Under the pieces are notes generated by a model that saw nothing but the letters and a program-made list of their open reading frames with translations, made no database searches and had not been told where the DNA came from. Of a stretch of 25,277 bases of DNA, positions 5,169-25,277 are shown in pieces. The number at the start of each line of letters is the position of its first letter. Position 1 is the stretch's first letter. Origin of the DNA: Pseudobdellovibrionaceae bacterium (GTDB lineage Bacteria; Bdellovibrionota; Bdellovibrionia; Bdellovibrionales; Bdellovibrionaceae); NCBI GenBank assembly GCA_041288045.1, contig JBGGMM010000192.1:1-25277 (forward strand), written 5' to 3'. The position numbers and the translations under genes are program-made.

Positions 5169-5870
5169 ATGCGAAAATTAGGACCGATCCAATGCCTCGA
5201 AGCTCATCCTAAGGTTGAACCCAAAGAGGGTCAACAACCACTGACTTTCCTTCTCTTTCATGGCTACGGCGCAGATGCCTACGATTTGAAATCATTGGCA
5301 GAGGTCATTCAAACTCCGACACCGACCCATTTTCTATTTCCGCAAGGAGTTCTCGAAGTCCCCATCGGTCCCGGCTGGACCGGCCGCGCTTGGTGGCCCA
5401 TCGACATCATGGCTTTGCAAGAAGCCGCCCTCCGAGGCGAACCGCGGGATCTTTCTCGCGAGACCACTCCAGGAATTGGCGAGCTTCGAAAAAAAGTTTT
5501 CGCGGCCATCGAAAGCCTGAAAACTCCATGGAATCAAATCATCCTCGGTGGCTTCAGCCAAGGAGCGATGCTGGCCACGGATATTTTCCTGAATGCTCCC
5601 GAAAATCCGCGGGCATTGGTCAGTCTGTCAGGCGCGCTCGTCAACAAAGACGAATGGAAGGCTTTGATCCCTCGTCGAGCTGGAGTTCCCTTCTTTGCCA
5701 GCCACGGAAAAATGGACGCTGTTTTGGACCACCGCTGTTCCGCCCAGCTTGAGACTTTCCTCACCCAAGCCGGAATGAAGGGAAAGCTTTTCAGCTTCAA
5801 CGGCGCTCACGAAATTCCAATGGAAGCAATTGTGCGGCTCAATGAATTTTTGAAGGACGTCGCCAAATAA
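5169..5870 (+). CDS. Alpha/beta-hydrolase, phospholipase/carboxylesterase family
   Basis: FHGYGA oxyanion loop, GGFSQGA nucleophile elbow, HGKMD (Asp) and GAHEI (His) give a complete triad; no signal peptide. Confidence 0.9.
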   Translation: MRKLGPIQCLEAHPKVEPKEGQQPLTFLLFHGYGADAYDLKSLAEVIQTPTPTHFLFPQGVLEVPIGPGWTGRAWWPIDIMALQEAALRGEPRDLSRETTPGIGELRKKVFAAIESLKTPWNQIILGGFSQGAMLATDIFLNAPENPRALVSLSGALVNKDEWKALIPRRAGVPFFASHGKMDAVLDHRCSAQLETFLTQAGMKGKLFSFNGAHEIPMEAIVRLNEFLKDVAK

Positions 5871-15851: not shown

Positions 15852-15877
15852 GAAAGAATCACAAGGAAGTGCGCCGG

Positions 15878-16909
15878 ATGAAAAATCGCGAATGGTTCAT
15901 CGTTTTTATTCCACTTGTTCTCACTTGGGCCGTCGATTTCTTTACCAAGCAGTGGGCCAGTGAGCTGACTTCGTATAAAGATTTCGGAATCGTCAATTTC
16001 GTTCTTCACCACAATCCGGGAGCCATGCTGGGTCTTTTCGCCGACCTGCCACCCATTTTGCGAGTGGTCTCTTTGTCGACGGGTGGAGCTTTCTTGTTTT
16101 GCACTTATGGTTTGATTCAGTATTTGCTGCCGATCAAATCCCTGACTTTGAGAACCGGTCTGTCGATTTTGCTCGGCGGAATTTTGGGCAATGTCACCGA
16201 TCGCATTATCTATGGTCACGTGATTGATTTCATCGTTTTCCGCTTGGGTGATTTGGGAAGTCCCGCTTTCAATTTGGCTGACGCTCTTCAGTGGGTGGGC
16301 TATGGGCTCATCGTTTATGCGATTGTCAAAGAGGGTGATCTTTTGTGGCCCGAATTCAACTCGAGAAGAAAGTACTGGATCAATCCAAGATTTCAATTGA
16401 AGTACTGCTTTTTCTTGCTGGGCGTGGGCTTCGGAGTGGGCTTGGTGTCGATGGTTTTCTCGTACACTTATTTGCGAGTGACGATGATCGAACTGAGCGG
16501 TCACAACACTCTGATCCTGGATAAATTCTTACTGCCTTTCACAATGACTTTCGGTTTGATCATCATGGGTCTCTGTGCGGGTCTTTTCACAGTGGGAAAA
16601 ATCATTTCCCACAAAATCGCCGGCCCCCTTTACGCTTTTGAAAAAGTCATGAGCGATGCCATCGAAGGCAAAAACCGCCCCTTCAAATTGCGCTCAAAAG
16701 ACGAATTCAAACATTTAGAAGATTTAGCAATGCAAATCCAAAAGCACCTGATTCGCTACGGAGCCCTGCCAGCAGATAAAAACGTCGAAGAAATTTCAGC
16801 CGAAGATCTCGAAGTCCAAGGCGCTTTGGTCGCCGAAGTGGCAGAGAAGTCTCATCAAGAGCATGAAAAAGCGCAGGCAACTCCGGCAGTCACGAAGATT
16901 TCCGGGTAA
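15878..16909 (+). CDS. lspA: Lipoprotein signal peptidase II with C-terminal TM-TM-HAMP-like extension
   Basis: DFFTK, NPGAMLG, GGILGNVTDR, VIDFI and FNLAD (both catalytic Asp present). About 190 extra aa with two hydrophobic helices and SHKIAGPL...LRSKDEFKHL. ATG 15878 preferred over GTG 15869 on RBS spacing. Confidence 0.88.
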   Translation: MKNREWFIVFIPLVLTWAVDFFTKQWASELTSYKDFGIVNFVLHHNPGAMLGLFADLPPILRVVSLSTGGAFLFCTYGLIQYLLPIKSLTLRTGLSILLGGILGNVTDRIIYGHVIDFIVFRLGDLGSPAFNLADALQWVGYGLIVYAIVKEGDLLWPEFNSRRKYWINPRFQLKYCFFLLGVGFGVGLVSMVFSYTYLRVTMIELSGHNTLILDKFLLPFTMTFGLIIMGLCAGLFTVGKIISHKIAGPLYAFEKVMSDAIEGKNRPFKLRSKDEFKHLEDLAMQIQKHLIRYGALPADKNVEEISAEDLEVQGALVAEVAEKSHQEHEKAQATPAVTKISG

Positions 16910-17285: not shown

Positions 17286-18128
17286 CTAGTAAGCCACCAC
17301 AGCATCCTTAATCTTCTGCAGATAAAACCGCTTCTGCGCCCCGTCCCGATGACAGGTGGCCATCACAAAATCCCCATCCGGATTTCGCACCAAGCCCAGC
17401 GGAGTGATCCTTCGAGTGTCCGTTTTCGATTTGCTGCTCTCGTAGGAAATATCCAGATGCAAATTCTTCTGCACACATTCGATCACTTTGTCGACAGTGG
17501 GATTATGGGCGTGAAGCAGGCTGTATTTCGACCAGCTCAGATCTTTTTCCACCACTTTTAAAACTTCCGACAGCGGAGTCAGCGGCCCTAATCGGTTCAT
17601 GCACTCGAGGCCCACGTGCAAACAGGCTCTGGCATCATCCAAAGCTCGGTGGGCTTTTCCGCCGTCGATCTTTAAAAGCGGAATCAGTGTTTGCAGTTTG
17701 TGATTGGGACTTTCGGTGATGAGTTTGCGCGCCAGCAGACTGGTGCAAAGCACGGGTTCGCTTGGCAGCGGCAGATTGTGTTTTTCAAATTCCACCGCCA
17801 TAAATCCCATATCGAAGGGGGCGTGGTGGGCCATGGGGATAGAGCCTTTGAGAAATTCGTGGATCTGAGAAATTTTCTCTGACATCAGGGGCGCATCGGC
17901 CACCATCTCGTTGGTGATTCCGTGAATAGAGATGATGAAATCACTCATGGGCTTTGAGGGTCTGAGCAAGGTCTGGAAAGAGTCGATTTCCTGCCCGCCT
18001 TTCCATTTCACGGCACCGAATTCGACCACTTCAGAGCCTAAGGGATAGGCTCCGGAAGTTTCAGTGTCAAAAGCGACGAAAGTGAACTCTGTCCAAGGTT
18101 TCGAAAAATCAGATTCGGATTCAGGCAT
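17286..18128 (-). CDS. DnaQ-like DEDDh 3'-5' exonuclease with C-terminal WYL domain
   Basis: ExoI VAFDTETSG, ExoII AHHAPFD and ExoIII HRALDDA. The C-terminal ISYE...RRITPLGL...VMATCHRDGAQKRFYLQKI fits the WYL pattern. ATG 18128 preferred over TTG 18137, which overlaps the predicted -10 box. Confidence 0.88.
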   Translation of the reverse strand: MPESESDFSKPWTEFTFVAFDTETSGAYPLGSEVVEFGAVKWKGGQEIDSFQTLLRPSKPMSDFIISIHGITNEMVADAPLMSEKISQIHEFLKGSIPMAHHAPFDMGFMAVEFEKHNLPLPSEPVLCTSLLARKLITESPNHKLQTLIPLLKIDGGKAHRALDDARACLHVGLECMNRLGPLTPLSEVLKVVEKDLSWSKYSLLHAHNPTVDKVIECVQKNLHLDISYESSKSKTDTRRITPLGLVRNPDGDFVMATCHRDGAQKRFYLQKIKDAVVAY

Positions 18129-18135
18129 AGGATCC

Positions 18136-18164
18136 AAGCTAACAAAGCCACCGATGAAAGTCCA
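18136..18164 (-). promoter_or_regulatory. Sigma70-like (extended -10) promoter for the exonuclease-WYL gene
   Basis: Minus strand TGGACT-17 nt-TAGCTT with TGn extension, 7 nt before ATG 18128. Confidence 0.5.
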
Positions 18165-18231
18165 GGCCGGCTCGAGAACGAGTTACATAGAAAGACCCAG
18201 TTCGGCTATGATCTCTAAAGAGGATTCATCT

Positions 18232-18918
18232 GTGATCAGCGACAAACTCAAATTCTGGTTCGGCCCCTTGGTGGTTTTGATTGTGACGGCAGCGATTGGC
18301 GCAAAAGCCCAAGCGCAAATGTCGAAAATGTATGGAACTGTGGGTTTGACTTCGAATTATGTCGATCGCGGGATCACTCAATCCAAAAAAGGACCTTCGC
18401 TCAATGCCGGGATGGGGTATTGGTTTGGTCCGCAGGGCCGCATCGGTTTTGAAGGCGCGAGTGTCGCTTACCAAAATGAAAGTACCAGCGTTGAAATGCG
18501 GCTTCTCACCGACTACAAATTTGTTTTCACGCAAGCCACAGATTTCAAAATCCGCGTCGACTGGGTCCGCTACTTTTCTGAAAATATTCGCAGCAAATTG
18601 ATCGCCACTTTGGATCTGAATCTTTTTACTTATCACGTCCTGGCCTCGCGTGAGGACAACTTTGAAGGAACCAAAAGACCCCGCAACTGGTTCGCTCTGC
18701 ACAAGGATTGGGCTTACACCCAAAGCGTGCAAATCAATGGCACTGTCGGGTATTCGATGCCCGAGGGATATGATAGCTATTTCGACACTCGCATTGGTGC
18801 TAGCTACTTGATGACCAATATCACTGTCGGAGTTTTTAACACCTATGTTTCAAAAGCCCAACAATTCGGCGGCACTGCCGACACAGCTTTCCTGCTAGAA
18901 TTGCAAGCTCGGTTTTAA
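18232..18918 (+). CDS. TorF/Gcw_chp-family putative outer-membrane beta-barrel
   Basis: Signal peptide ending AKAQA, family-like motif GTVGLTSNYVDRGITQS, alternating beta-strand pattern and C-terminal Phe. Start moved to GTG 18232 (AGAGGA RBS) to avoid overlap with the divergent gene. Confidence 0.75.
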   Translation: MISDKLKFWFGPLVVLIVTAAIGAKAQAQMSKMYGTVGLTSNYVDRGITQSKKGPSLNAGMGYWFGPQGRIGFEGASVAYQNESTSVEMRLLTDYKFVFTQATDFKIRVDWVRYFSENIRSKLIATLDLNLFTYHVLASREDNFEGTKRPRNWFALHKDWAYTQSVQINGTVGYSMPEGYDSYFDTRIGASYLMTNITVGVFNTYVSKAQQFGGTADTAFLLELQARF

Positions 18919-19084
18919 ACGAATTTTTTAGAATTTCTTATTTTCCCCTCTTTCTGAGACACCGAATTTTTTGATCCTGGCTCAAATTGATCAAATACAA
19001 TTATATTTAAAGATCTTTGCCAAGCTTCCGTAAAGTAAGAGTCCTATTCGCGGAACGTTGTTTGGACATTGCTCTGGAGATGAC

Positions 19085-22000
19085 ATGAGATGGACTCTTG
19101 GTCTTTTGCTGTTCACGTTGCTTCTGCACCAGTCCCTTTTTGCTGCTCCCGCCACTGTTTTTGGACCAAAAACATTTCAAGCGGCTCCCAGTACCGCGTC
19201 TTACAATGAATCATTCTCGAATTCCAAAGAGAACGCTGATGGGGTTTTGACCATCACCAATGGAAATGGCCAGGATCTTTCTGAGCTGGAATGTCCAAAA
19301 AAGCCAGTGGCGACGATGATTCTCTGCAAAGCTGAGAATGTCGAAAGGCATTTGCGCACAATTTTTGAAAGACCGTCTCAGTTTGAGATCAGTTTGAATG
19401 GCAGAGTGATCGCCACCCAAGCTCAGCTCCCCGACGTGAAGGGCAAGTACCAAACCGCGATCAAAGTGACGCTCGCGAATACTCTCAAAGTCCGCGTGAA
19501 GGGACTTTGGACTTCTTATCTTTCCGTTGAGATCAAAGCGGATTCGACCACAGTGAATCAAAATCCGATCGCTCGGTTCTCGGCAACTCCCGCTCAGGGG
19601 ATTGCGCCTGAATTGATTTCCTTCTCGGGACTGACCAGCTCGGATCCGGATGGCGATGCTATCACTCAGTACACTTGGGATTTCGGTGATGGCGGTTTTG
19701 CCACGGGGTCTTTGGTTACTCACAATTTTCTCGCGGCTGGAACATATCAAGTGAAACTCACCGTCCAAGATTCTCGCGGTGGGACCGGAAGTCTCACGCA
19801 AGCGATTGTCATTCGCGCCAATCAGGTGCCGATTGCGAACTTCACGGCCATTCCTGAAACGGCTCTCGGAGTTTTGAAAGCCAAATTCGATGCATCGACC
19901 TCGCAGGATTCGGATGGCTCGATTGTTTCTTATGATTTTGATTTTGGTGACGGCAGTCATGCGAGCACCGCCGTGGCTGAGCATATTTACAGTGCGCCTG
20001 GTACTTATCAGATCACGCTCACCGTGAAGGACAATAAGTTTGCTACTGCTACCAAGACAATCAGTCTGTTGGTGAAAGACGCGACTCCGCCGGTCGTGGC
20101 TGTTTCAAGTCCTGTGAATAATTCAACTCTCTCGAATTTTTCTGTTCCGGTTGCTGGCTCTAGCAATGAGCCTCTGTCTGAAATCACGGCTCAGTTCGGT
20201 AGTGATATACCTGTTGTATTAAATCTTAGCAGTGATCGAAAATCCTTTTCTGGAACGCTCACAGCAACCGGCACTGGAAGTAAAATTATCACACTGTCAG
20301 CAAAAGACTTGGCTGGAAATCAGACGGTCAATGGTTTGACGATTACGATCAGTGCGGACCTACCACCGATTGCCAAATTAGAAACCACAGCTCCACAATC
20401 CAAAGTCGCTCCGCTGATGGTGCTCTTTGACGCTTCAAAGTCCACTTCGCCTCAAGGCAAAGCTCTGTCATTTCATTTCGATTTTGGTGATGGCAGCGGA
20501 GCGGACAGCGCAAATGGAGTTATTTCGCACAGCTTTGAATCCGCTGGTAGCTTCACTGTAACTGTGAAAGTCACCGACAGCTCAGGCCTTGAATCCATAG
20601 CCTCAACTCAGATCATAGCTGTGGATCCAGAAGTGCCACCGCCTGTTGAAAATCAGGCGCCACCATTGGCCAGCTCGGGGCTTCAACCAATGATTGATTC
20701 TGTTAAGTTCCTTTATGAAGGTGAAAATGCAATTCAGAGAAATGTTCAACCTGGAGCCATCGATGCCAATCGAGTGGCAGTGCTCCAAGGAGTGGTTTTT
20801 AATCAAGATGGCTCCCCTCTTTCTGGAGTCAAAATTTCTGTATTGGAAATGCCCGAAGTGGGTGAGACCTTCACAAGTGAAAATGGGAAATTTCATATCG
20901 CAGTCAATGGAGGCGCTGTTTTAACTGTTCACTATGAGCGCAACGGCTATTTTCCATTGCAAAGAAAAATCTCAACTTCAGCGCTTGATTACTTTCACAC
21001 TGAGAAAGTGGTCATGGTACCGCCCGACTCAAAAGTCACCCAGCTGCAGAACAATGCAGCATCCATTCAAGTCGCCAAAGGCTCAAAAGTCAGCGACACA
21101 TCAGGTGAAAGAACACCCATGCTTGTGATTCCTCCGCTCACTGAGGCAAAGCTACAAATGCCGGATGGAAGTTTGAAGCCAATCTCAACAATTTCACTTC
21201 GAGCCACCGAATACACGGTCGGAGCTGATGGACCTCAACGAATGCCGGCAGAATTGCCCACGATGACTGGTTATACCTATGCTGTTGAACTGAGTGTTGA
21301 CGAAGCTATTGCAGCTGGCGCTGAGCATGTTGTGTTTTCAAACCCAATTCCATTTTATGTCGATAACTTTTTAGATGTTCCTGCTGGAAGCGTTGTTCCC
21401 GTTGGCAGCTATGATGCCCAGTTAGGTGCTTGGAAAGCTGAAAACGATGGAATTGTCGTCAAAGTTCTGTCCATTCAGAATAACTCTGCAATTCTCACTT
21501 TCGACGATAACGGAACTCCTGCGACTCCCCAACAGCTTTCCGTTTTGAAGATCACTCCCGATGAGTTGATGAAAATCGCCGAGAACTATGCGCCCGGGCA
21601 AAGTTTTTGGCGAGCTCGATTGAGCCACTTAAGTCCCATTGACCTGAATTTCCTAACAAAATTACCACGCGTTCGAGTTGCGACCAAGCGTCCTGGACCT
21701 CCCCAGAACCCGAAGGAAACAGGTTGCACAATGGGATCTATTATTGGCCTAACGGATTGCAGTCTTGGTGAAGAGCTTAGCTTTCCCGGTGTTCCGACCA
21801 ATTTTCATTACAGTACGCTCACTAAGCCAGGCCGAGTTGCTGAACGCCAAGTGGTCATTCCACTTTTCAATGACGTTTTTTTACCATCTGATTCGACTGA
21901 AAATATTCATTTAAAAATTGAAATTGCTGGACAGGTCTATGAGCAGGATTTTACGCCTTCGAGCTACCTTTCGACAACTTGGTCTTGGGATGGGAAGGAT

Positions 22001-25000
22001 AGCTTTGGAAGAAACGTCTATGGGCGTACACCAGCCCGCATCACTATCGATTATGAAAGTCCAACATTCTACGAAATTTCGACGGCAAATTTCACACTTT
22101 TGGTTGACGCAAAATCTTTTGGATCCGGATCCCTGGATTTGATTACTACTTCATTTCCATCTCGTCAGCTGAGTAAAGTGACACAGACATACACGATTCC
22201 GATTGGGAATGGGTTTTCGACAAACACAATTGATGTAGGTGGTTGGAGCCTATCACAAGTGCATCGTTACGACCCAATTTCACAAAGTCTTCAGTTAGGA
22301 AATAGCTCAGTTGTTGATGGCTCTAACATGTCTCCAATTTTAACTAGGATCGCCGGTAATTTTACTGCTGGATCATCCGGCGATAACGGCCCGGCTTCAC
22401 TTGCCAAGTTCAATGGCATCACAGCATTAGCAGTTGGACCTGATGACAGCATCTACGTCGCTGAGTTCGGTCGCATTCGAAAGATTGGTCCCGATGGAAA
22501 TGTTGTGACGATTGCGGGAAATGGTGTGTTTGGCCCTATTTCCGAAGGTCAATTGGCTCTCAATTCAAGTATGACTCGGATCGATGGTTTAGCGATTACG
22601 AATACTGGCGCCATCATTTTTGGTGCTGACAATCGAATTTGGAAATTTTCGGAGGGTGGCACTCTTTCCCGAATAGCTGGCACTGGAGAGTATGGTTACT
22701 CTGGTGACGGAGGCTTAGCAATTAATGCCAAGATGTTTGATCCGAAAGATCTCGTCCTCGGCAGTGATGGAACACTTTATTTTATTGATTCAAAAAATCG
22801 AAGAATTCGAAAAATCGCTCCTGATGGCATGATTTCGCTTTTGGCAGGAAATGGAGAATTCGGACTTCAAGGAAATGGTGGTCCCGCCACGCTCGCAAGT
22901 TTTTCTGAGCCCACTCACCTGGCGGTTGGGTTGAATAAAGAAATCTATGTTTCCGACAAATTCGCTTTTTCAGTACGAGTGATCACCAATGACGGGTTCA
23001 TCAATCGCTTTGCAGGAGTTGAAACTGCCGGTGTAAGCCCTCGAGACGGTGAAGTTGCCCTGCAAGCGAAAATGGGAACGACTGGGGCACTTGCTGTTGA
23101 CCGAGAGGGCAATGTTTATATTAGCGATATTAGCAATGGACGAATTTATCAAATCACACCCAATGGAATCCTGCTCACAATTGCAGGTGCCATCAATTCC
23201 AATGAAAACTTTTTTATTGGTTCGGTCGTCGCACTCAATAATTCCTACGCTGCTGTTTTTCTTAAATTTTATGGAAAAGACCGTTTGTTAGCAGTTCCTC
23301 AAGGATTTCCAATGGTTCATCTCTACCATAAAGCTCTGCCAGATTTAAATACGGCAGGTTACTCGATTGGTTCACTGGATGGGTCCGAAATTTATCAATT
23401 CTCCTCAATGGGTCGTCATTTGCAAACTCTCTTTTCTAAAACTGGAAAGGTGAAATGGAAATTCGCTTATGACAATGAAGGTCGCTTGATTTCAATGACG
23501 GACGCTTACTCAAAAGTCACCACCATCCAAAGAGATGGCAATGGACGACCTCTGGCAATGGTTGGCCCTTTTGGTCAAGCGCTTTCTTTCACATCGAACG
23601 CAGATGGCTACCTGACATCGGTGTCATTGCCAACTGGCGAGACGACTCGGTTGGATTATAATTCGGGTGGTTTGCTCCTCAGTTACCAAAGACCGAATGG
23701 CAACGCTTCAACTTTTGAATACAATTCTTTAGGTGAATTGATCAAAGACTCAGATGCCGCTGGAGGATTTAAAATTTTAGAAAAAATCAGCCAGTCCGTT
23801 TTTCAATTCACTATCAATGAAACGACCGCAACCGGACGAAAAACTGAATTCATCGTCGACGACTCAGGAGCTAATTTCACCACCTATCGCACAAATCATC
23901 CCTCGGGACGAACTGATTATGAAATCCAGTCTTTGAATTCAGAACAAATGCAAACCTTTTCTGGAAGCTCCTTCGCCAAAACGAATCGGGACATTGATCC
24001 ACGTCTTGGGGGAATCACTCAATTTTTTAGTCAAAAACTGAGCAGCTATCCCTGGGGGAGTGATCTTATCAACGTGACGTCGTCCTATACGCCTCAAAGT
24101 TCGACGGACTTTTTCAGTTTCACTCAGGTTGAGGAAGTTCAAAATGGCCCTACTATGCTGACAACTGTTTATCGGTCTTTGGACCGTCAGATTTCTTCTG
24201 TCACTGGCGCAGGTAAAAAATCTGTCACAGCGATCAATGAATTTGAACAACCTGTTTTGGTTCAAAACGGGGCGCAAGCTCCTATTCAGTATTCCTATAA
24301 CAATCGGGGGCAATTGATTTCAATCCTGCAGGGAGATCGCGAATCGACACTTTCTTATAATTCACTTGGGCAGGTTACGACTGTGACAAATCCTGAGGGG
24401 CAAACGACTTCGCTTTTTTGGGATCCTTCAAGCCGTCTAACTCAAGAAAAAAGAGCCGATAACAAAGTGATCAATTATCAATATGATCTCAATAGCAACC
24501 TCTCTGGTATTCAGCCTCCAGATAGACTTCTGCATCGGTTTACCTCCAATTTGATCGATCTTTTCGCCGTCTACACTCCACCGACGACTCCGAATGGCGG
24601 CGGAAGCACTCGGAATTTTTATAATCTCGATCGGCAAATCACCAAAATTGTCCGACCCGACGGAACTGAGCTCAAATTTTTGTACAATCCGACGACTTTT
24701 GCTCTGACCCGGGTTGAAGGGACACTGAAAAGTATTGATTTTGAAATGAGCACATATTCAAATACTTTTCCGAATTTTGCTAACTCCAGCGATGACATCC
24801 AAATCTATAACCAAGCAACGGATCACGTTCTTTCTCTTCGGATTTATCAAAATGCGGTTTCAGGTATAATCACCTATCGCCGCACTCGACCTTCTTTGCT
24901 CAATGAAATGATCATCAACGATCAAGTCTCTGTTGCCTACCAATACGATCAGGATGATTTTCTGCGCCAAGCTGGGAATTTAGTGATATCGCGAGAACCT

Positions 25001-25277
25001 CTGACTGGCACCATCATTGGCACTCAAATTGGCAATATCACTGAGTCTCATCAATTGAATTCTTTCGGCGAAATCAGTCAATCGAGCCACAGTGTGGGCA
25101 GCACATCTGTCTTCGCGAATCAGTACACTCGAGATAAGCTCGGAAGAATCACAAAGAAGATCGAAACTATTTTGGGCCAAACTAAAACCCACAATTATTC
25201 TTACGATTTGGCAGGACGGCTGATCACAGCATCATTGAACGGCGTCATCGAACGACAGTACACCTATGATGGAAACG
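19085..25277 (+). CDS. Giant exported teneurin-like protein (PKD/Ig, TTR-like, FN-plug, NHL, YD/RHS repeats); 3' end outside the window
   Basis: Manual translation: GGAGA RBS, ATG 19085, no stop for 2064 codons. Signal peptide MRWTLGLLLFTLLLHQSLFA; three PKD domains (W/F-DFGDG); one Ig-like domain (DATPP...DLAGN); NHL repeats (IAG..G..GDGG.A) at about 22330-23340; YD repeats (YDNEGRL, YNNRGQL, YDLAGRL) from about 23360. Confidence 0.93.
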   Translation, partial: MRWTLGLLLFTLLLHQSLFAAPATVFGPKTFQAAPSTASYNESFSNSKENADGVLTITNGNGQDLSELECPKKPVATMILCKAENVERHLRTIFERPSQFEISLNGRVIATQAQLPDVKGKYQTAIKVTLANTLKVRVKGLWTSYLSVEIKADSTTVNQNPIARFSATPAQGIAPELISFSGLTSSDPDGDAITQYTWDFGDGGFATGSLVTHNFLAAGTYQVKLTVQDSRGGTGSLTQAIVIRANQVPIANFTAIPETALGVLKAKFDASTSQDSDGSIVSYDFDFGDGSHASTAVAEHIYSAPGTYQITLTVKDNKFATATKTISLLVKDATPPVVAVSSPVNNSTLSNFSVPVAGSSNEPLSEITAQFGSDIPVVLNLSSDRKSFSGTLTATGTGSKIITLSAKDLAGNQTVNGLTITISADLPPIAKLETTAPQSKVAPLMVLFDASKSTSPQGKALSFHFDFGDGSGADSANGVISHSFESAGSFTVTVKVTDSSGLESIASTQIIAVDPEVPPPVENQAPPLASSGLQPMIDSVKFLYEGENAIQRNVQPGAIDANRVAVLQGVVFNQDGSPLSGVKISVLEMPEVGETFTSENGKFHIAVNGGAVLTVHYERNGYFPLQRKISTSALDYFHTEKVVMVPPDSKVTQLQNNAASIQVAKGSKVSDTSGERTPMLVIPPLTEAKLQMPDGSLKPISTISLRATEYTVGADGPQRMPAELPTMTGYTYAVELSVDEAIAAGAEHVVFSNPIPFYVDNFLDVPAGSVVPVGSYDAQLGAWKAENDGIVVKVLSIQNNSAILTFDDNGTPATPQQLSVLKITPDELMKIAENYAPGQSFWRARLSHLSPIDLNFLTKLPRVRVATKRPGPPQNPKETGCTMGSIIGLTDCSLGEELSFPGVPTNFHYSTLTKPGRVAERQVVIPLFNDVFLPSDSTENIHLKIEIAGQVYEQDFTPSSYLSTTWSWDGKDSFGRNVYGRTPARITIDYESPTFYEISTANFTLLVDAKSFGSGSLDLITTSFPSRQLSKVTQTYTIPIGNGFSTNTIDVGGWSLSQVHRYDPISQSLQLGNSSVVDGSNMSPILTRIAGNFTAGSSGDNGPASLAKFNGITALAVGPDDSIYVAEFGRIRKIGPDGNVVTIAGNGVFGPISEGQLALNSSMTRIDGLAITNTGAIIFGADNRIWKFSEGGTLSRIAGTGEYGYSGDGGLAINAKMFDPKDLVLGSDGTLYFIDSKNRRIRKIAPDGMISLLAGNGEFGLQGNGGPATLASFSEPTHLAVGLNKEIYVSDKFAFSVRVITNDGFINRFAGVETAGVSPRDGEVALQAKMGTTGALAVDREGNVYISDISNGRIYQITPNGILLTIAGAINSNENFFIGSVVALNNSYAAVFLKFYGKDRLLAVPQGFPMVHLYHKALPDLNTAGYSIGSLDGSEIYQFSSMGRHLQTLFSKTGKVKWKFAYDNEGRLISMTDAYSKVTTIQRDGNGRPLAMVGPFGQALSFTSNADGYLTSVSLPTGETTRLDYNSGGLLLSYQRPNGNASTFEYNSLGELIKDSDAAGGFKILEKISQSVFQFTINETTATGRKTEFIVDDSGANFTTYRTNHPSGRTDYEIQSLNSEQMQTFSGSSFAKTNRDIDPRLGGITQFFSQKLSSYPWGSDLINVTSSYTPQSSTDFFSFTQVEEVQNGPTMLTTVYRSLDRQISSVTGAGKKSVTAINEFEQPVLVQNGAQAPIQYSYNNRGQLISILQGDRESTLSYNSLGQVTTVTNPEGQTTSLFWDPSSRLTQEKRADNKVINYQYDLNSNLSGIQPPDRLLHRFTSNLIDLFAVYTPPTTPNGGGSTRNFYNLDRQITKIVRPDGTELKFLYNPTTFALTRVEGTLKSIDFEMSTYSNTFPNFANSSDDIQIYNQATDHVLSLRIYQNAVSGIITYRRTRPSLLNEMIINDQVSVAYQYDQDDFLRQAGNLVISREPLTGTIIGTQIGNITESHQLNSFGEISQSSHSVGSTSVFANQYTRDKLGRITKKIETILGQTKTHNYSYDLAGRLITASLNGVIERQYTYDGN

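Follow-up and report, generated by a model that had tools for sequence, protein, structure and literature searches.

Bacterial teneurin-like proteins (TLPs) are built on an invariant superfold of FN-plug, NHL propeller and YD shell with TTR and TIP domains upstream (PMC13018210; this and most other papers are cited here for passages of their text). They undergo two cleavages, one at Gly723|Ser724 and one past the RHS core, hold a cargo of about 15 kDa in the shell and have an immunity gene behind them. The Gly723|Ser724 cleavage and the release of the cargo by the RHS autoprotease were demonstrated for BiTLP, and the published set covers 139 genomes from six phyla (PMC13018210). The same paper states as an open question by what route the toxin gets out of a closed RHS shell when there is no injection machine. 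Here we describe a TLP gene at the right end of contig JBGGMM010000192.1 from the Pseudobdellovibrionaceae bacterium assembly GCA_041288045.1. The window, i.e. the whole stretch of DNA that was analysed, has 25,277 bases and is the entire contig (G000:C192, below C192). We read the gene, with a probability of roughly 0.62, as an accessory antibacterial polymorphic toxin with a cysteine-tethered cargo.

Bdellovibrio, names of the Bacteriovorax type and the word "orphan" are absent from the text and searchable supplements of PMC13018210 as far as these were accessible. A literature search by title or abstract start, with most subscription journals outside it, gave no paper on a teneurin-like, Rhs or polymorphic toxin of this kind in Bdellovibrio or Bdellovibrionota.

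An open-ended teneurin-like gene

The initial annotation had proposed an open frame of more than 2064 codons that was missed by the open reading frame (ORF) track and is colinear with animal teneurins. We found the frame on the + strand from an ATG at 19085, with a ribosome-binding GGAG just 5' of it at 19076-19079, to the last base of the window at 25277, comprising 2064 codons without a stop. Because the window is the whole contig, the frame is truncated by the assembly and not by a stop; the ORF track missed it because a listing includes it only if frames without an end are permitted. If the probable tail on another contig is included, the gene (19085..25277, +) would have about 2434 codons.

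In phmmer residues 312-2064 align to the solved bacterial TLP PDB 9IFO with an E-value of 1.5e-238. Among solved structures the bacterial teneurin-like protein 9IFO/9PT5 ranks first and the animal teneurins come next (E about 1e-53), and against teneurin-3 the TTR, FN-plug, NHL and shell regions align in order. The motifs quoted in the initial annotation were located at 20783-20941 for TTR, at 21764-22270 for the FN-plug and at 23387 for the start of the YD shell. Pfam assigns TTR_TEN1-4 (PF25020, E 2.3e-19) and TEN_NHL (PF25021, E 5e-19), together with three stretches of PKD (PF18911) and an Ig-like domain (PF05345) at residues 335-422. TEN_YD-shell reached E 4e-12, which is under the curated cut-off on the truncated window sequence, and the FN-plug family (PF24329) is weak, with E 8e-4 and likewise under its cut-off. 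A lack of profile or structural matches to the teneurin FN-plug and TTR regions, by which the initial annotation would have been refuted, was not seen: with a model of residues 531-1079 (42 sequences, pLDDT 84) the top 16 Foldseek chains were all teneurins or TLPs, and fly teneurin was matched with Z 19.8 and a root mean square deviation (rmsd) of 2.5 over 227 residues. Because of the phmmer alignments to 9IFO and teneurin-3 and the match of the model to fly teneurin, we regard the predicted FN-plug as secure despite its weak Pfam score. We have next to no doubt that the window gene encodes a bacterial TLP. It is one more TLP and not a new kind of protein, since the family is already known from PMC13018210, where its members are described as polymorphic toxins that have immunity genes.

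Judged from the sequence, the N-terminus looks like a cleavable Sec signal peptide of the signal-peptidase-I type (19085..19144, +) without a lipobox cysteine, the first cysteine being residue 70. By a crude pattern the lipobox is absent in 14 of 15 Bdellovibrionota TLP starts, in three of which the start codon was not located. A tip domain follows (19145..19555, +; residues 21-157), common to Bdellovibrionales TLPs in an alignment of seven and modelled (pLDDT 93) as a jelly-roll sandwich into which a helix is inserted between the invariant Cys70 and Cys81. Structure comparison of this domain gave generic matches only (best Z 7.3, many ties), no Pfam match stood above noise, the best Atlas neighbour (0.89) is unnamed, and no named family was found. 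The tip is probably a target-binding module. It is carried by a stalk of PKD, PKD, Ig-like and PKD domains (19556..20620, +; last boundary approximate). Then come the TTR-like domain (20762..21016, +; also a fold match), the TIP domain (21023..21655, +), the FN-plug (21737..22315, +), a six-bladed NHL propeller with six blade-start motifs (22337..23344, +) and the YD/RHS shell (23345..25277, +), which is truncated about 230 codons before the cargo.

The missing end of the gene and its cargo

Contig C188 of the same assembly opens in frame with shell sequence. The genome contains a complete TLP paralog (G000:C64:40652-47782, -; L002) with 62% identity to the window gene, and when C188 is placed on this paralog its base 1 falls about 8 bases past the last base of the window. 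C192 and C188 have no k-mer or sequence overlap. The assembly holds two TLP heads (C192, C64) and three RHS cores, two of them full (on C64 and at C188:460-690) and one an orphan (C188:3420-3605). At the left end of the window the contig start interrupts murD (1-1107, -) at profile position 349, and the gene picks up again at position 363 near the end of C244 (14413-14662, -), with a gap of roughly 8 codons and without overlap; murD continues on C244, which therefore adjoins the left end of the window. Contigs of two public runs were compared with window 23278-25277: one (X1) gave three short partial pieces, none past the end, and the other (X2) gave none, so these are no evidence for or against a join of C192 and C188. 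The stretch occurs in a single study, which may be its source. We regard C188 as very probably the tail of the window gene, joined to it by homology.

The remainder of the gene, with the RHS core and the cargo end of the shell, would then be G000:C188:1-1104. A gene for a 99-residue membrane protein (G000:C188:1126-1425) begins 21 bases past the cargo stop. The initial annotation had placed the cargo, any immunity gene and the RHS-core cleavage motif beyond the window. On the probable tail the residues of the BiTLP aspartyl autoprotease (Arg, DPIL and DPSG) are retained at BiTLP spacing, the cargo and the small membrane gene follow, and no premature stop appeared. A bipartite DPx(G/L) core with Arg and then a variable cargo is found on C188 (as joined here) and in the paralog. 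Further along C188 lie an orphan shell fragment with 82% DNA identity to the C64 paralog and not to the window gene (G000:C188:1978-2781, L001) and the orphan RHS core with another cargo start (G000:C188:3420-3738, L001); these pieces are signs of exchange between the two TLP loci.

The C188 cargo has 136 residues, with 21% Gly, 17% Ala, seven charged residues and one Cys, and contains 10 GxxxG motifs and four weakly hydrophobic helices; the 99-residue frame behind it has two to three hydrophobic segments. A cargo homolog (57% over 77 residues) lies at an NHL-bearing metagenome locus (L180), where a small hydrophobic frame follows too. The cargo alone has no relative in the PDB, and a faint Gly-zipper match in Pfam (E 0.023) and unnamed Atlas neighbours give weak recognition. 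A sequence likeness to the BiTLP cargo is not claimed, as the alignment rides on the core, and a predicted complex of the cargo with the 99-residue protein scored 0.00 with a poorly folded partner and was not used. Composition and gene order make it fairly likely that the Gly/Ala-rich cargo acts on membranes and that the membrane protein gives immunity. By analogy with the BiTLP cargo, Tse5 (PMC10684867) and ionophores of contact-dependent inhibition systems (PMC11630599) its role may be to depolarise them.

The C64 paralog has a 75-residue Pro-rich cargo with one Cys and no recognisable toxic fold, followed by a 331-residue frame with a signal-like start and a 108-residue membrane frame. A Pro-rich cargo in G379 (L134) is likewise paired with a frame, in this case of 389 residues. 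Relatives have unrelated cargoes, small downstream genes and orphan cores: a further RHS core lies within 3 kb in 13 of the 38 TLP loci having at least 3 kb of downstream DNA (4/10 in Bdellovibrionota). The cargoes of Bdellovibrionota TLPs vary (L021, L127, L129, L023) and include HExxH motifs in G024 and G155 as well as Gly-rich hydrophobic ones. The TLP cargo of G114 resembles Tlde1-type peptidoglycan enzymes, and transposase-like frames follow TLP cargoes in G006 and G005.

Cysteine parity and a proposed tether

In BiTLP a single disulfide between Cys719 and Cys2216 was reported and called surprising (PMC13018210), and the cargo density was largely lost after purification under reducing conditions (peer-review file of PMC13018210). 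By alignment to 9IFO the equivalent of Cys719 in the window protein is Cys881 (21725..21727, +), the predicted cargo tether, and the N-terminal cleavage site Gly723/Ser724 corresponds to Gly884/Ser885 (21734..21739, +), where conservation with BiTLP predicts a cut. Word searches of the accessible text of PMC13018210 returned no family-wide cysteine or disulfide test; nor did literature searches or word searches of passages from PMC8765631, PMC11461821, PMC10684867, PMC9935623 and bioRxiv 10.1101/2024.02.26.582050.

We counted cargo cysteines in two sets of TLPs. The first comprised 94 frames from 93 loci, in 45 of which no cargo could be read, being cut, split or not caught by the pattern, and the count was odd in 45 of the 49 readable cargoes. 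The second comprised 150 representatives, 71 without a readable cargo; here 76 of 79 cargoes were odd and none was without Cys, the expected values being 39 odd and 6 without Cys. Set 2 cargoes absent from set 1 were odd in 70/72. Both sets and the C188 cargo together give odd counts in 116 of 122 unique cargoes, or 109 of 114 clusters, and at least one Cys in 121/122. A Cys lies upstream of the G|S site wherever the site could be located, which was the case for 40 sequences of set 1 (9/49 unlocated) and 118 of set 2 (32/150 unlocated). As an internal control, TLP shells have even Cys counts in 35/40 and 48/63. Random TLP windows of equal length were without Cys in 1292 of 1580 cases, and 118 of the remaining 288 were odd.

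For comparison we analysed DUF6531 Rhs relatives from Pseudomonas, Burkholderia and relatives (n=120; P0395-P0514). Their cargoes are odd in only 23 of 107 unique sequences and never without Cys; by cluster the odd fraction is 13/54, against 109/114 in TLPs. In this family two Cys precede the N-terminal Ser site, and cargo parity goes with how many there are: an even cargo accompanies two upstream Cys in 73/84 and an odd cargo accompanies one in 9/12, or in 70/80 and 8/10 with a stricter anchor. With the stricter anchor the link gives a median p of 0.004 and a worst value of 0.037 (1000 draws with one member per cluster, N-terminal kinship uncorrected). Because TLPs combine odd cargo parity with an upstream Cys, and DUF6531 proteins even parity with two, the single published BiTLP disulfide looks like a general tether. 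We consider a cysteine tether between the cleaved N-terminal fragment and the cargo likely. By our best reading it would be a disulfide in TLPs, and in the DUF6531 family either a pair of disulfides or a zinc site.

Several observations weigh against this picture. Odd parity is also found in non-TLP Bdellovibrionota Rhs proteins (27/28; 30 loci, 3 unreadable), in unclassified metagenome cores (70/86) and in E. coli Rhs (7/8 cargo clusters, 93/120 readable). The latter is odd despite an upstream CxxC and is not predicted by a simple matching rule. TLPs with two upstream Cys never have an even cargo (odd in 7/7 and 4/4 in two counts). Just past the site the window protein has Cys892, a possible alternative partner for Cys881. 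The 2+2 pattern of DUF6531 proteins may be a metal site, since that family seems to have no evident oxidising export route.

Six weak-hit non-TLP Bdellovibrionota Rhs loci were inspected and have a signal-like start and the shared C..G|S-[IV] motif. As these proteins, the metagenome cores and E. coli Rhs are also odd, we rejected the idea that odd parity is specific to TLPs. A C-terminal position of the cargo Cys was rejected as well: in 34 of 79 cargoes it is no more than 6 residues away from the end, and in the others its position is scattered. The P1-prime residue is Ser in 88 and Cys in 30 of the 118 sites, the search pattern having required one of the two; this residue may be the nucleophile, but in Tse15 a downstream Glu, and not Ser, is essential (PMC11461821). 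The extra Cys is at P1-prime in 30/118 and a few residues later in 68/118, never both (98/118 in total); in the window this stretch is 21737-21760. Scans for control Rhs cores gave 2 loci on viral contigs and 10 by motif.

The TIP domain as a probable ZU5-like fold

Residues 117-327 of the model, i.e. the TIP part, match ankyrin ZU5 (3f59) with Z 8.7 and rmsd 3.1 over 135 of 149 residues. ZU5 rows were the only ones to span the TIP part of the 549-residue model; the Z value is middling and TIP was folded within the larger model. The Pfam search gave no ZU5 profile match for the window protein. From the model TIP is probably a ZU5-like fold. Of 230 distinct TIP sequences 223 have H-[FL]-[ST] on the last strand of this fold, and all 230 have Ser or Thr there; in the window protein this is His848-Leu849-Ser850 (21626..21634, +), a candidate self-cleavage triad of the ZU5/GPS type. 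The motif resembles the self-cleaving triads of PIDD, Nup98 and GPS sites.

ZU5 autopeptidases at the N-terminus of RHS toxins have been grouped with GPS and defined by a CxH motif (PMC3482391). TIP itself was flagged in 2018 as of unknown structure and function and is kept in choanoflagellate and amphioxus teneurins (PMC5851990). Two points speak against an active site. The CxH mark is absent in TIP, where I, V, L, T and M are the five commonest residues at position -2, and gels and N-terminal sequencing of recombinant BiTLP give two cleavages only, none of them in TIP (PMC13018210). Self-cleavage of the ZU5 type in TIP is thus a tentative prediction that we rather doubt, and the mechanism proposed below does not require it.

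Host and distribution

The MurF protein of the window has its named matches among Pseudobdellovibrionaceae and Bdellovibrio, with 57-59% to B. bacteriovorus, and the nearest named TLP loci carry the label Bdellovibrio sp. The host family includes periplasm-invading predators, and it is from family membership that the host may be called a predator. With a TTR-TIP-FN profile we found matches in 12 of 400 genomes across the phylum Bdellovibrionota, in 4 of 7 congeners and, at full length, in one of 17 further family members; the family's best-sampled genus has a TLP in 1 of 26 genomes. Since only 12/400 genomes of the phylum carry one, the TLP is accessory and not core predation gear. With an E-value of 1e-30 or better the profile matched 3146 cluster representatives, fragments counted; the size of the TLP family therefore far exceeds that of the published set.

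A tree of 94 rows made with FastTree has a branch with a support of 99, to one side of which lie all 19 rows from Bdellovibrionota; the tree is unrooted and without bootstrap, the other 75 rows were picked by motif and score, and several Bdellovibrionota rows have an odd composition. Two TLP genes are split by in-frame stops, one at the FN-plug/NHL border (L018:12157-12159, -; G002:C6) and one in the shell (L132; G141:C9), which reflects decay or assembly error. The phylum also contains non-TLP Rhs proteins of about 1200-1430 residues with signal-like starts (L009-L013, L016, L150-L179); they combine a small N-domain rich in Cys with the C..G|S-[IV] plug motif that TLPs also have. In genus g10 RHS cores were found in 10/10 genomes searched.

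Proposed mechanism and alternative readings

We propose the following sequence of events. The protein would be exported by Sec via its cleavable signal peptide and would then pass the outer membrane. It has no lipobox, no VgrG turned up in this genome, which is 83% complete, and four secretin genes are present. The FN-plug/NHL/YD shell would fold around the C-terminal cargo, which the RHS aspartyl autoprotease would free, and a cut at Gly884|Ser885 would free a fragment of tip, stalk, TTR and TIP. Cys881 on this fragment would be bonded to the single Cys of the cargo, so that the fragment becomes a handle and the cargo could be towed from the shell, as in an A-B toxin, once the tip domain engages a target; such a bond has been seen once, in BiTLP, and its generality is supported by the Cys parity. 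As composition and gene order suggest, the Gly/Ala-rich cargo would enter the inner membrane of the target from outside and depolarise it, and the 99-residue membrane protein would shield the producer. The targets are most likely competitors or non-kin relatives. It has to be set against this scheme that the join of C192 and C188 comes from homology and that toxicity, export and target of this protein are all predicted from sequence.

The initial annotation had suggested a surface adhesin or toxin-delivery particle, for prey recognition or for competition. Toxin delivery is the part that we uphold; prey recognition is the weaker option, given the rare and patchy occurrence of the gene across the phylum and its signs of cargo swapping, which are typical of competition systems. 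A predation effector released on or in prey, where a membrane toxin acting from the periplasm needs no injection machine, nonetheless has points in its favour: the predators of the host family invade the periplasm, the protein has no lipid anchor and the 83%-complete genome no VgrG that we found, and two TLP paralogs share an upstream element. Furthermore, the hydrophobic BiTLP cargo is lethal only if sent to the periplasm, and TLPs are enriched in the predatory Myxococcota (PMC13018210). We still consider this reading unlikely. A TLP is present in just 12/400 genomes of the phylum, 1/26 of the best-sampled genus of the family and 4/7 congeners, and cargo swapping, immunity genes and orphan cassettes would suit a reciprocal arms race better than feeding.

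A further alternative concerns the tether. The cysteines could form a metal site or a local Cys881-Cys892 loop, and the cargo would leave non-covalently as proposed for Tse15 and RhsA. Extra density, maybe a metal, is present near the BiTLP site (PMC13018210), tethering in Tse15 is non-covalent (PMC11461821), a second Cys stands at +1 or just after in 98 of the 118 sites, and the DUF6531 2+2 pattern, rich in CxC and CxxC, resembles a zinc site. We hold this to be rather improbable, as the disulfide is visible in the BiTLP map. A local loop leaves unexplained why 121 of 122 unrelated cargoes contain Cys when 1292/1580 equally long TLP windows have none, and a shared metal site would itself be a tether.

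The long PKD/Ig stalk, the jelly-roll tip and the NHL propeller would also fit a non-toxic surface adhesin or kin-recognition receptor with a teneurin-like function and a signal or vestige as cargo; E. coli was inhibited by only three cargoes from a panel of nine (PMC13018210), and the 75-residue Pro-rich cargo of the paralog has no toxic fold that we recognise. Intact autoprotease residues, hypervariable cargoes, a small gene right behind, orphan cassettes and the lack of an anchor that would hold the TLP on the cell make this very unlikely. C188 could also be part of a third TLP that was not assembled, and the window gene would then have another cargo or be a pseudogene. This is very unlikely: although the contigs have no overlap, the genome is 83% complete and congeners carry up to two or three TLP pieces, some split by stops, a third gene, 7 kb long, would have to be broken no more than three codons away from the same point, the copy counts of heads and tails agree, murD shows the same style of break, and the window frame runs through 2064 codons without a lesion.

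The reading as an antibacterial toxin with a tethered cargo can be extended. Shells with a Ser site might in general carry a cysteine-coded tow-line, in which the free Cys of the cargo must match that of the N-terminal fragment (one in TLPs, two in DUF6531 proteins) and adhesin and toxin leave as a covalent A-B pair. TIP might in addition be a ZU5 autoprotease whose cut at His-Phe/Leu|Ser/Thr gives a handle released by force or contact, as at the GPS of adhesion G-protein-coupled receptors such as latrophilin, the partner of teneurin, and in Bdellovibrionota the device may fire inside prey. As a whole this is speculative and we think it unlikely to hold in full. The significance of our data lies more in the patterns among relatives than in the gene itself. 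Parity over more than 100 unrelated cargoes, with the opposite parity where there are two anchor Cys, turns a single bond into a testable family-wide rule that bears on how a toxin leaves its container without an injection machine. The assignment of TIP to the ZU5 superfamily adds another site that can be tested and is relevant to the loss of toxin-release parts in teneurins. Both the Cys parity rule and the probable ZU5-like fold of TIP go beyond the papers cited here.

Upstream region and neighbouring genes

The window TLP and the C64 paralog share an upstream element (18930..19084, +) with 79% mean column identity between the two DNA stretches, which is presumably functional. No sigma-70-type promoter or terminator was found upstream of the TLP gene. 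Directly upstream lies a gene for a TorF-like porin (18064-18918, +), and further to the left are a DEDD exonuclease fused to a WYL domain (17286-18137, -) and a signal peptidase II-like domain of about 150 residues with a 190-residue extension without family match (15869-16909, +). A dedicated outer-membrane partner was rejected, as a comparison with 22 other TLP-region loci turned up none of the three genes (TorF-like porin, exonuclease, LspA-like). A phospholipase/carboxylesterase gene (5169-5870, +) splits the cell-wall cluster between ftsI and murE on the opposite strand.

Comparison with known systems

The closest described system is BiTLP of Bacillus inaquosorum (PDB 9IFO/9PT5; PMC13018210; first noted in PMC5851990), which has the same order of signal peptide, stalk, TTR, TIP, FN-plug, NHL, then YD shell. 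BiTLP and the window protein together with C188 further share the G|S site with its upstream Cys, a bipartite RHS core, a hydrophobic cargo of about 13 kDa and a small downstream gene. Compared with the published TLPs, the window gene belongs to Bdellovibrionota, which is not among the six phyla surveyed in PMC13018210, has a lineage-specific tip domain and is accompanied by orphan cassettes downstream of its probable tail. Gram-negative TLPs are reported mostly as lipoproteins in the passages of PMC13018210, whereas the window protein is without a lipobox.

Animal teneurins (Ten-m, Ten2-4) share TTR, FN-plug, NHL as well as YD shell, and the relative pose of TTR and FN-plug is kept in our model (Z 19.8). 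They differ in that the window protein has a signal peptide and a PKD/Ig stalk, with no transmembrane helix as type II anchor and no EGF family match, and that it has TIP; its probable tail has a cleavable core and is without a Tox-GHH match, and there is no ABD. With the Rhs effectors of the type VI secretion system (RhsA, Tse5, Tse15, DUF6531 Rhs) the protein and its probable tail share the shell, the aspartyl core and, as predicted here, two cleavages and a cargo/immunity pair; the Tse5 cargo depolarises membranes (PMC10684867) and in Tse15 the N-domain associates with the cargo (PMC11461821). Unlike these effectors it has a Sec signal and no PAAR/VgrG-type N-terminus, FN-plug and NHL replace the cork plug, and a covalent tether is proposed for TLPs.

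ZU5-bearing RHS toxins (PMC3482391) likewise have a ZU5-like fold N-terminal to the RHS repeats and a His-hydrophobic-Ser/Thr motif; PMC3482391 ties ZU5 mainly to proteins of the SpvB/TcdB type and, in the passages at hand, makes no link to the teneurin insertion. Finally, Bd0109 of Bdellovibrio bacteriovorus and other RHS proteins of strain HD100 (PMC3818213) have YD repeats and come from the same bacterial family as the window host. As far as the passages of PMC3818213 show, these are pilus-linked regulators or short Rhs proteins without TTR-TIP-NHL, and not TLPs such as the one described here.

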